DNA of 64,000 bases from Escherichia coli. GTDB lineage: Bacteria; Pseudomonadota; Gammaproteobacteria; Enterobacterales; Enterobacteriaceae. Where the stretch lies: NCBI RefSeq assembly GCF_050320075.1, contig NZ_CP190018.1; one strand, 5' to 3'. Shown here in pieces: positions 40,091-40,908 of the stretch (position 1 is its first letter; each line of letters opens with the position of its first letter). The notes beneath the pieces are model-generated. The model was not told the DNA's origin and did no database searches. It was given only the letters and a program-made list of their open reading frames with translations. A program made the translations under genes and the position numbers.

Positions 40091-40375
40091 CTATAAAACC
40101 TTGTCTGTCTGGTAGTTCCGCCAGACAGATTTTGCGATTTCTATCCCCATATCCGCCTGTGTGCGGTGTGCTGCCTCTCTCAAGCTCCCGAAATTATCCA
40201 GCATGACGGGCGAACGTGCTGCCTTGTGGATACATTTCGCGCGACGCTTTACTGCCTGTTCGCGCTCCTTATCGGTGTTCACCTGTTGCATGACCTCAGC
40301 CCATCGGGCCGCCGCTCTCCGGTACAGGCCTTTAGCCTCCAGATCTTCCGCTTTGCTGTCGTGAATCATACTCAT
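40091..40375 (-). CDS. PerC-family transcriptional regulator-like protein
   Basis: 94 aa with AEDLEAKGLYRRAAARWAEV, resembling the PerC/Pch signature; start overlaps the upstream gene's stop (ATGA). Confidence 0.55.
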   Translation of the reverse strand: MSMIHDSKAEDLEAKGLYRRAAARWAEVMQQVNTDKEREQAVKRRAKCIHKAARSPVMLDNFGSLREAAHRTQADMGIEIAKSVWRNYQTDKVL

Positions 40376-40908
40376 ACGCCAGCTTGCTCCTTGTTCGACT
40401 TACGTTTGCGCTTCTCTTTCAGTGCCATCAGTCGTGCTTCCGCGTCCTGCTGTTCCTGTTGTGTCACCTCGCCGCATGGCTGGCTATTCAGATCGTAACG
40501 CACGCCACCAGCCATTAAGGCACGGTAATAACGCGGAGAATGAGCATAAGATGCTAGCGCCGCACGTAATGCCCCTGACCCAAAAGCCAGCGCCCTGACG
40601 GCAATATCCTGTATCAGGTCTTCAAATATTCCTACCTTAAGCGGCTTCGGTGATTCCAGGCTGAATAATTCAGGCCATAGTTCAATAAGACGGTTAACGC
40701 GCCTGCGGTTTTTGCCCTGGCGTTTGGTCATATGCCGCCACGGTGTCGCCCCTGTGGGCTTCTGTTTGCGGCTCTGCTGTGCGTTCTGATTGCCGGGTAT
40801 CACTTTATGCGCTGATGTGGTTTTATCCTGCTGCTGTGTCGTCTGTGTCTTTTTCTGTGGTATGCCGTAAATGCCTTTCGGTTTTCTGCTAATAGTCAGT
40901 GTAGTCAT
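40372..40908 (-). CDS. FinO/ProQ-domain RNA-binding protein
   Basis: 178 aa; residues ~80-165 align with the ProQ N-terminal domain (PLKVGIFEDLIQDIA ~ PLKIGIFQDLVDRVA; LRAALASYAHSPRYY ~ LRSALRLYTSSWRYL; RYDLNSQPCGEV ~ RVDLDGNPCGEL). Basic Lys/Arg-rich termini; GAGG SD upstream. Confidence 0.8.
   Translation of the reverse strand: MTTLTISRKPKGIYGIPQKKTQTTQQQDKTTSAHKVIPGNQNAQQSRKQKPTGATPWRHMTKRQGKNRRRVNRLIELWPELFSLESPKPLKVGIFEDLIQDIAVRALAFGSGALRAALASYAHSPRYYRALMAGGVRYDLNSQPCGEVTQQEQQDAEARLMALKEKRKRKSNKEQAGV

Follow-up and report, generated by a model that had tools for sequence, protein, structure and literature searches.

A FinO/ProQ-family protein encoded by an 8.2-kb P4/PICI-like phage satellite at tRNA-Pro(GGG) in Escherichia coli

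On F-like plasmids, finO is located at the far end of the operon that is under its antisense system, and the gene is dispensable (F itself is finO::IS3). FinO of these plasmids (1DVO), ProQ of E. coli (5NB9), the chromosomal regulators RocC (7RGT/7RGU), NMB1681 (3MW6) and Lpp1663 (6S10) of Legionella and Neisseria, and FopA (YafB) of the IncI plasmid pCol1B9 are the described FinO-domain proteins with which the protein of this study was compared. FopA is a small mobile-element protein with a positively charged N-terminal region, of which the gene adjoins replication functions (PMC7491321). As for phage satellites, the only published mention of a FinO-like gene found in our literature search is one sentence on Vibrio extrachromosomal satellites with parA and repA (PMC13230959); no description of finO in P4-like satellites or in phage-inducible chromosomal islands (PICIs) was found in the satellite and FinO literature searched, and the satellite surveys consulted do not mention FinO genes. 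Here, we analysed a finO-like gene in a 64,000-nucleotide stretch of E. coli DNA (contig NZ_CP190018.1; hereafter, the window), which encodes a 178-aa protein (hereafter, island FinO) within an 8.2-kb P4/PICI-like phage satellite at tRNA-Pro(GGG).

Island FinO is a member of a known and already annotated family (RefSeq name, 'ProQ/FINO family protein', WP_000209995.1) in a little-studied setting, and nothing in the island that carries it departs from known kinds of system. Comparison of related islands indicates that the gene is an optional, gene-sized cassette without accompanying non-coding DNA. The reading that we prefer, with a probability of about one half and by analogy to other members of the family, is that this accessory FinO would act in trans on pre-existing RNAs with terminator hairpins, as an optional tuning factor of the satellite.

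The FinO-like protein and its predicted RNA-binding pocket

The initial annotation, made from the letters of the window alone, had aligned the protein by eye with the N-terminal FinO domain of ProQ, and this alignment was right. The Pfam model PF04352 (ProQ/FINO) matched residues 69-171 (E=1.7e-24, 86.3 bits, model positions 6-107 of 109). When all PDB sequences were searched with phmmer, the significant matches were FinO-domain proteins only: the ProQ N-terminal domain (5nb9, 1.1e-13), which is the best sequence match among solved structures, FinO (1dvo, 1.4e-10), NMB1681, RocC and Lpp1663. Structure prediction was performed with AlphaFold2. The model obtained with close homologues only (predicted local distance difference test (pLDDT), 57) was superseded by a model from a deep alignment of 132 sequences, for which 1.8 billion cluster representatives were searched (E<=1e-3, 2095 relatives); the mean pLDDT of this model was 85.5, with values >95 across residues 61-178. 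With this model, the 26 top Foldseek matches in the PDB were all FinO-domain structures (template modelling score (TM) up to 0.84; root-mean-square deviation (rmsd), 2.2-2.5 A), and the 27th-ranked match fell to E=3. Island FinO is therefore assigned the FinO fold, which consists of a helical core with a beta-hairpin and a long C-terminal helix. The best structural match was FinO of F-like plasmids (rmsd 2.2 A, 30% identity), and RocC, NMB1681 and Lpp1663 have the same core and the same terminator-binding pocket (target-normalised TM up to 0.84) but are 26-31% identical to island FinO and have other tails.

Both termini are rich in lysine and arginine, as had been noticed from the sequence: residues 1-66 contain 14 K+R against 1 D+E, and the final 18 residues contain 7 K+R. 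Disorder was predicted for residues 1-60, and a basic N-terminal extension is shared with FinO of F-like plasmids. Unlike ProQ, island FinO has this 60-aa disordered basic N-terminal tail and does not have the linker and the Tudor-like C-terminal domain; the protein ends ~20 residues past the FinO domain. Its gene is also an accessory one, in contrast to proQ, which belongs to the core genes. In NCBIfam, it scored under the cut-offs of both FinO sensu stricto (NF010317; 67.1 bits, cut-off 136) and the ProQ equivalog (NF003434; 63.4 bits, cut-off 127, covering profile positions 10-118 of 205 only).

In E. coli ProQ, R58, Y70 and R80 are essential for the binding of every RNA tested, K54 and R62 make a moderate contribution, and some RNAs also depend on K35 and R69 (PMC10168233). 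In the phmmer alignment, R58, Y70, R80, K35 and R69 are kept in island FinO as R115, Y127, R137, K91 and R126, respectively; the first three are conserved residues of the concave-face RNA-binding pocket of the ProQ/FinO family. R115, Y127 and R137 are invariant or nearly so in the alignments; Y127 is the sole invariant column among the 132 diverse relatives, and R137 is kept in at least 90% of them. The ProQ residue numbering used here agrees with the residue identities in PMC10168233. Judged from these comparisons, island FinO is a FinO/ProQ-family RNA-binding protein, the RNA binding itself being assigned by family membership.

The open reading frame (ORF) is intact, with 178 codons, an ATG start, a TGA stop and a GAGG ribosome-binding site ~10 nt 5' of the ATG. 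The median pairwise ratio of nonsynonymous to synonymous substitution rates (dN/dS) was 0.27 (697 gene pairs), equal in the tail and the domain; therefore, purifying selection acts on the gene, which is no relic. Some copies are frameshifted or truncated (e.g., in loci L004 and L005), and many partial clusters are found in the homologue list, as would be expected of a decaying passenger gene without current function. Such an explanation is, however, hardly credible for a gene with an intact ORF, this dN/dS value, conserved RNA-binding residues, and a product that is 100% identical in Escherichia albertii, in which the flanking core genes are 92% identical.

Distribution of finO and its relation to candidate partner RNAs

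The FinO subfamily (50-100% identity) is found almost entirely in Escherichia, with some members in Salmonella, Citrobacter and Shigella, and is carried by 1090 of 5426 complete E. coli genomes (~20%), at up to nine places per genome and always on the chromosome. Plasmid FinO-domain proteins are mostly ~30-40% identical to island FinO; only nine weak matches were obtained among 50,697 phage records, and a one-genome-per-species scan gave only 2 loci. The order int, alpA, icd-like gene, DUF4222 gene, primase gene (DUF927 or D5-type), iterons, (ssb), finO and perC recurs in ~85 loci, in which the integrases and regulators vary and the primases are of two unrelated types; perC precedes finO in a few. 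Members of the subfamily with 66-73% identity were also found in large pathogenicity-type islands without primase, PerC and C4, where finO invariably comes with a convergent 177-182-aa ORF without a Pfam, NCBIfam or PHROG match (L003, 9630-10163; L004, 9479-10027; L005, 9379-9927). The stop codons of the two genes are only 18-110 bp apart; therefore, the 3' ends of their transcripts may overlap.

The statement of the initial annotation that no cognate RNA is annotated in the island proved too pessimistic: an IsrK-like leader RNA and a C4/CI antisense RNA are present between the AlpA-like and icd-like genes (Table 1). These Rfam matches correspond to the seqA element and the CI RNA, respectively, of phage P4 immunity (PMC3632133). 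The C4/CI RNA folds far better than shuffled controls (minimum free energy (MFE) -40.9 kcal/mol, z=-4.1), and the IsrK-like RNA ends in a GC intrinsic terminator hairpin followed by U6, with a single-stranded stretch before the hairpin. The CI loop is complementary to the seqC-like target over the icd ribosome-binding site (Table 1), and also to an 8-nt stretch in the part of the IsrK-like RNA that is single-stranded. Because the complementarity of the CI loop and seqA shifts in step across three independent units (the window, L013a and L013b), there is good evidence, from sequence comparison, that the CI/seqA/icd circuit works. In P4 and P1, CI blocks icd translation or causes early termination. 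By analogy, CI would keep the downstream replication operon, finO included, off. Among the island-encoded RNAs, the IsrK-like RNA is the best candidate ligand of FinO, and Salmonella ProQ associates with IsrK and other prophage small RNAs (PMC5391140).

A feedback loop resembling the plasmid FinO-FinP system can be proposed from this circuit: FinO would bind the IsrK-like leader and/or the CI (C4) RNA and speed or stabilise the pairing of the CI loop with seqA and the icd ribosome-binding site, so that the read-through by which FinO is made feeds back to shut the operon. The complete circuit on the island, the 14-nt pairing, the co-variation in three units, the textbook FinO-ligand shape of the IsrK-like RNA and the above-mentioned ProQ-IsrK association all speak for it; presence/absence variation of finO is also compatible with it, as finO of the F plasmid is dispensable. 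The distribution of the genes, however, makes it unlikely. Covariance models for both RNAs were built from the copies of the window and L013, and 175 loci were searched; C4 or IsrK was found in only ~9 of ~95 FinO-bearing loci, and FinO is also present in islands without such RNAs. A second, independent sample comprised 79 IMG/VR islands with the DUF927 primase as the anchor; 17 of them have FinO and 8 have C4, and a single island has both. There was no association between the two in this sample (C4 in 1/17 FinO-positive vs 7/62 FinO-negative islands; Fisher p=1), and C4/IsrK was rejected as a dedicated partner of FinO. Moreover, phage P4 has the same immunity and is not known to encode any FinO protein.

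Islands with and without FinO that are 85-94% identical elsewhere are set apart by a clean segment of 555-560 bp (spacer and ORF) between ssb and the next gene. In a segment-by-segment presence test, no DNA besides the ORF tracked FinO within 4 kb of the primase gene. Because this indel is bare and no other segment tracks FinO, FinO appears to have no partner RNA travelling with it. Thus, the earlier proposal of an RNA-based control or conflict system stood in part: the island does have C4/IsrK immunity, but membership of FinO in such a system was not supported by the above counts or by the bare indel. Other candidates for a partner were also rejected, namely, a co-inherited neighbouring RNA gene (only the ORF tracks FinO, and the pairwise comparison shows a clean indel); an antisense RNA inside finO (terminator-like hairpin at 40738-40757 (+)), which was not conserved and showed no covariation among 58 unique genes; and the conserved element at 44741-44837 as a FinP-like antisense RNA, which is more readily taken as the promoter of the operon together with a terminator for reverse-oriented genes of other islands, and is found in FinO-negative islands too. 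The synonymous-site profile of finO was flat, and FinP gave no Rfam match in the window.

These results also bear on replication control of the FopA/Inc type, in which the copy number of the satellite would be set by FinO and an antisense RNA, as yet unrecognised, from the origin or from the junction of primase and ssb. finO is always directly 3' of the origin iterons or ssb, within the replication module, and FopA of IncI plasmids acts in this way with Inc RNA and the repZ mRNA (PMC9977716, PMC7491321). We regard this explanation as very unlikely: 62 of the 79 islands with the same primase family do not have FinO, FinO is also found in islands without primase, no FinO-linked non-coding segment and no convincing antisense-strand promoter-terminator pair near the origin were found, and the candidate hairpin inside finO was not conserved. 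In addition, P4 and PICIs rely on protein and iterons for their replication. FopA has been likened here by its description; a plasmid match considered as FopA was not FopA. Unlike FopA, of which the ligand, Inc RNA with the repZ mRNA, has a matching distribution (PMC7491321), island FinO had no such partner within 4 kb of the primase gene. Likewise, the island differs from F-like plasmids in having neither a FinP/traJ pair nor conjugation genes, and island FinO differs from their FinO in being chromosomal, never plasmid-borne in the 1090 genomes, and without a partner RNA of matching distribution. It resembles plasmid finO in being a dispensable mobile-element gene at the far end of a long operon with an antisense-controlled leader.

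Another explanation is that FinO, possibly with PerC, is an effector of conflict with a helper phage, binding regulatory or terminator RNAs of the helper or competing with host ProQ so as to redirect helper expression. Manipulation of helper transcription and termination is common among satellites (P4 Delta, Epsilon and Psu). In most satellites, FinO and PerC go together, whichever gene comes first; finO lies at the edge of a variable cargo region, where anti-phage systems are found in relatives; and the subfamily is very diverse within one species (50-100% identity). FinO was, however, rejected as a component of a defence system, as no PADLOC model matched; the dN/dS of 0.27 gives no sign of positive selection, and neither a helper phage nor a target is in evidence for the island. 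We thus find this role quite improbable. As a separate observation, the variable region after perC in related satellites likely holds anti-phage cargo, such as an AAA ATPase with DUF4435 (PARIS-like; L002, 13438-15394) and GmrSD_N with HEPN (L011, 13184-14963); in L006-L009 (~9560-16400), it holds three consecutive ORFs of 600-900 aa without a Pfam match.

In the preferred reading of trans action, the conserved concave pocket (R115, Y127, R137) would grip a terminal stem-loop with a 3' U-tail, and the basic tails would help to stabilise the bound RNA or to pair it with a partner. Since finO would be co-transcribed with the primase gene, the origin and ssb, the protein would be made mainly when the CI-RNA immunity is lifted. 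The ligand would not be a dedicated RNA gene travelling with finO, because satellites that differ in immunity module, integrase and primase carry the same subfamily, as do unrelated pathogenicity-type islands. The ligands probably pre-exist in the recipient cell, because finO moves as a bare ORF between unlike elements; they could be terminator-hairpin RNAs of resident mobile elements, helper phages or the host, and could include IsrK/C4-type RNAs where present. FinO would then be a tuning factor outside the core of the satellite life cycle.

Several points weigh against this reading. FinO and FopA on mobile elements have dedicated cis-encoded antisense partners of matching distribution (PMC7491321), and a trans-acting role would depart from this pattern. 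The co-distribution test spans 4 kb on either side of the primase gene and misses a partner located elsewhere or inside the ORF. Two of the ProQ positions involved in RNA binding, K54 and R62, are replaced in island FinO (S111 and A119, respectively, in the phmmer alignment). No promoter of finO's own was detected, but one may exist. Finally, every mechanistic step is an analogy to other members of the family.

The satellite island and its genes

The region is E. coli chromosome, 100% identical to that of strain YZLc1-3 and others. The island is bounded by yejO on one side and by tRNA-Pro(GGG)/yejM on the other. In the listed genomes without the island, the yejO-side homology stops at ~38797 of the window and is followed directly by tRNA-Pro, and an imperfect direct repeat of the tRNA 3' end, GGCACGAGAG.., is present at both ends (Table 1); therefore, the island is ~8.2 kb long. 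This homology break and the repeats, together with the primase and ssb genes, confirm what had been supposed, namely, that finO lies on a mobile island next to replication genes. In E. albertii NBRC 107761 (L015), the same island is present at the same tRNA-Pro(GGG) with 96.6% identity, as against 92% for the flanking core genes (compared with window 37512-49834), and this difference suggests that the island moved recently and horizontally between the species.

Table 1. Positions of the island features in the window
Feature	Position	Strand	Evidence or remark
tRNA-Pro(GGG), integration target	46974..47050	-	att repeat copies at 46979-46996 and 38796-38813
Tyrosine integrase gene	45523..46767	-	RefSeq annotation
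AlpA/Vis-like helix-turn-helix regulator or excisionase gene	45078..45269	-	phrog_66, phrog_2790
Conserved ~95-nt element	44741..44837	.	- strand, promoter-like TTGAAT-16-CATATT into operon; + strand, terminator hairpin
IsrK-like (P4 seqA) leader RNA	44597..44673	-	Rfam RF01394, 61.6 bits (gathering 50)
C4/CI antisense RNA (P4/P1-type immunity RNA)	44485..44572	-	Rfam RF01695, 78.7 bits (gathering 45)
seqC-like target GUUACAGGAGGCUG	44436..44449	-	covers icd ribosome-binding site; complementary to 14 nt of CI loop
icd-like gene	44243..44431	-	first ORF 3' of immunity RNAs
Unnamed 61-aa ORF	44065..44250		follows icd-like gene
DUF4222 gene	43738..44025	-	always just upstream of primase gene in this island family
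DUF927 primase-helicase gene	41606..43741	-	711 aa; phrog_1139 DNA primase, E=2e-165; equivalent to P4 alpha or PICI Pri-Rep
Origin-like iteron cluster	41438..41588	.	2 x CYTGTCCCA, AT-rich spacer, 4 x TGGGACAAG, last three 21 nt apart; directly 3' of primase gene
ssb paralogue	40944..41369	-	141 aa, acidic ...DEIPF tail; TIGR00621, 61 bits (cut-off 53.95); phrog_44
finO-like gene	40372..40908	-	178 aa; disordered basic N-terminal tail 1-60, FinO/ProQ domain ~61-160, basic C-terminal helix
PerC-family small regulator gene	40091..40375	-	phrog_994, E=4e-36; PF06069 in homologues
69-aa ORF	39825..40034	-	last co-directional ORF of module; phrog_7206, E=1e-6
Second iteron cluster	39160..39300	.	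layout as first, inverted relative to it, near island end

All island genes are on the - strand, in the order int, alpA-like gene, IsrK-like RNA, C4/CI RNA, icd-like gene, 61-aa ORF, DUF4222 gene, primase gene, iterons, ssb, finO, perC and 69-aa ORF. finO is thus at the far end of the replication operon, between ssb and perC, and its assignment to an operon with SSB-like and PerC-like genes is borne out by the layout: ssb ends 35 nt upstream of finO, the perC-like gene starts 4 nt inside the finO stop (ATGA) or, according to RefSeq, 2 nt past the stop, and no strong intrinsic terminator was found between ssb, finO and perC, all on the - strand.

The island shares with phage P4 and P4-like satellites the tRNA-targeting integrase, the AlpA/Vis-like regulator, the IsrK(seqA)/C4(CI) immunity (PMC3632133) with seqA and seqC targets, and an alpha-type primase-helicase gene followed by origin iterons. 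It also has the arrangement of PICIs (Gram-negative examples are EcCICFT073 and EcCIMP1), in which int, alpA and pri-rep are followed by an iteron origin in one direction, and a PerC-family gene, which is common in Gram-negative PICIs (PMC11773190). The position considered as that of EcCICFT073 in the CFT073 genome turned out to be a lambdoid prophage. Unlike P4 and the PICIs, the 8.2-kb island has none of the helper-manipulation genes sid, delta, psu and epsilon and no packaging or capsid gene recognisable among its ORFs (all ORFs of at least 50 aa; PHROG and NCBIfam). Therefore, the element combines P4-like with PICI-like features in a minimal satellite, such as surveys class as 'Type C' (PMC10085698).

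In the origin-like cluster, the four TGGGACAAG iterons are inverted relative to the first two iterons, and related islands have the identical layout with iteron sequences of their own. The two iteron clusters of the window (GGGACAAGT) bracket the module of ssb, finO, perC and the 69-aa ORF and recall the P4 ori and crr; among the islands checked, the distal cluster (39160-39300) was found only in the window and E. albertii L015. A perfect 15-bp hairpin (45474-45507 (-); MFE -20.9 kcal/mol, z=-6.5) is located directly 3' of the integrase stop and could be a terminator or a binding site of the integrase or Rep; one of its arms is like an origin iteron (GCTCCTAACTGATACCAA vs GCTCCTAACTTGTCCCAA). 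At the non-coding left end of the island, GGGGGATCATTT, which contains GATC, is present twice, 24 nt apart (39740-39790), and G/C runs of 7-9 at 39123-39138 and 39772-39787 form an inverted repeat ~630 nt apart.

The conserved element at 44741-44837 is kept among islands with unrelated neighbouring immunity modules. Its + strand terminator, GGCGACC..GGTCGCC-TTTGTTTT, ends a reverse-oriented small gene pair (DUF3950, YlcI/YnfO) in other islands. The 'ash family protein' pseudogene of RefSeq (44482-44850) sits exactly over the IsrK-like and C4/CI RNA genes and is probably an RNA region miscalled as protein-coding. Tandem IsrK-C4 units were found in L013 (two; 3065-3758) and L095 (three; 845-1875). 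In both L013 units, which were inspected, the CI loops differ and each is matched by its own seqA; therefore, one satellite seems to carry several immunity specificities. The other Rfam matches in the window (MicF, 13858-13951; two naRNA4 derived from repetitive extragenic palindromic elements, 10121-10197 and 21958-22040; L25 leader, 50766-50791) belong to the usual core features of E. coli and have no relation to the island.

Implications for satellites and the FinO family

A broader idea, which we hold as speculative and rather unlikely to be right, is that the FinO cassette gives satellites and other integrative islands a plug-in module for 'fertility inhibition' or hijacking, made only on induction and capturing terminator-hairpin RNAs of the helper phage, those of host ProQ clients, or the leader and immunity RNAs of the element itself. 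If this were true, it would change whether and how strongly the satellite or the helper proceeds, and would be the first RNA-chaperone layer in the interplay of satellite, helper and host, in about one-fifth of E. coli strains.

Among bacterial RNA chaperones, three main classes are distinguished, and the FinO-domain proteins form one of them. With every mobile-element member characterised, a specific RNA switch has come to light (FinP/traJ with FinO, and Inc/repZ with FopA). From the ligands of the present subfamily, it would be seen whether satellites tune their induction, or exploit helpers, by means of RNA chaperones, and the subfamily itself is a natural and easily testable set of variants for how FinO domains choose their RNAs.

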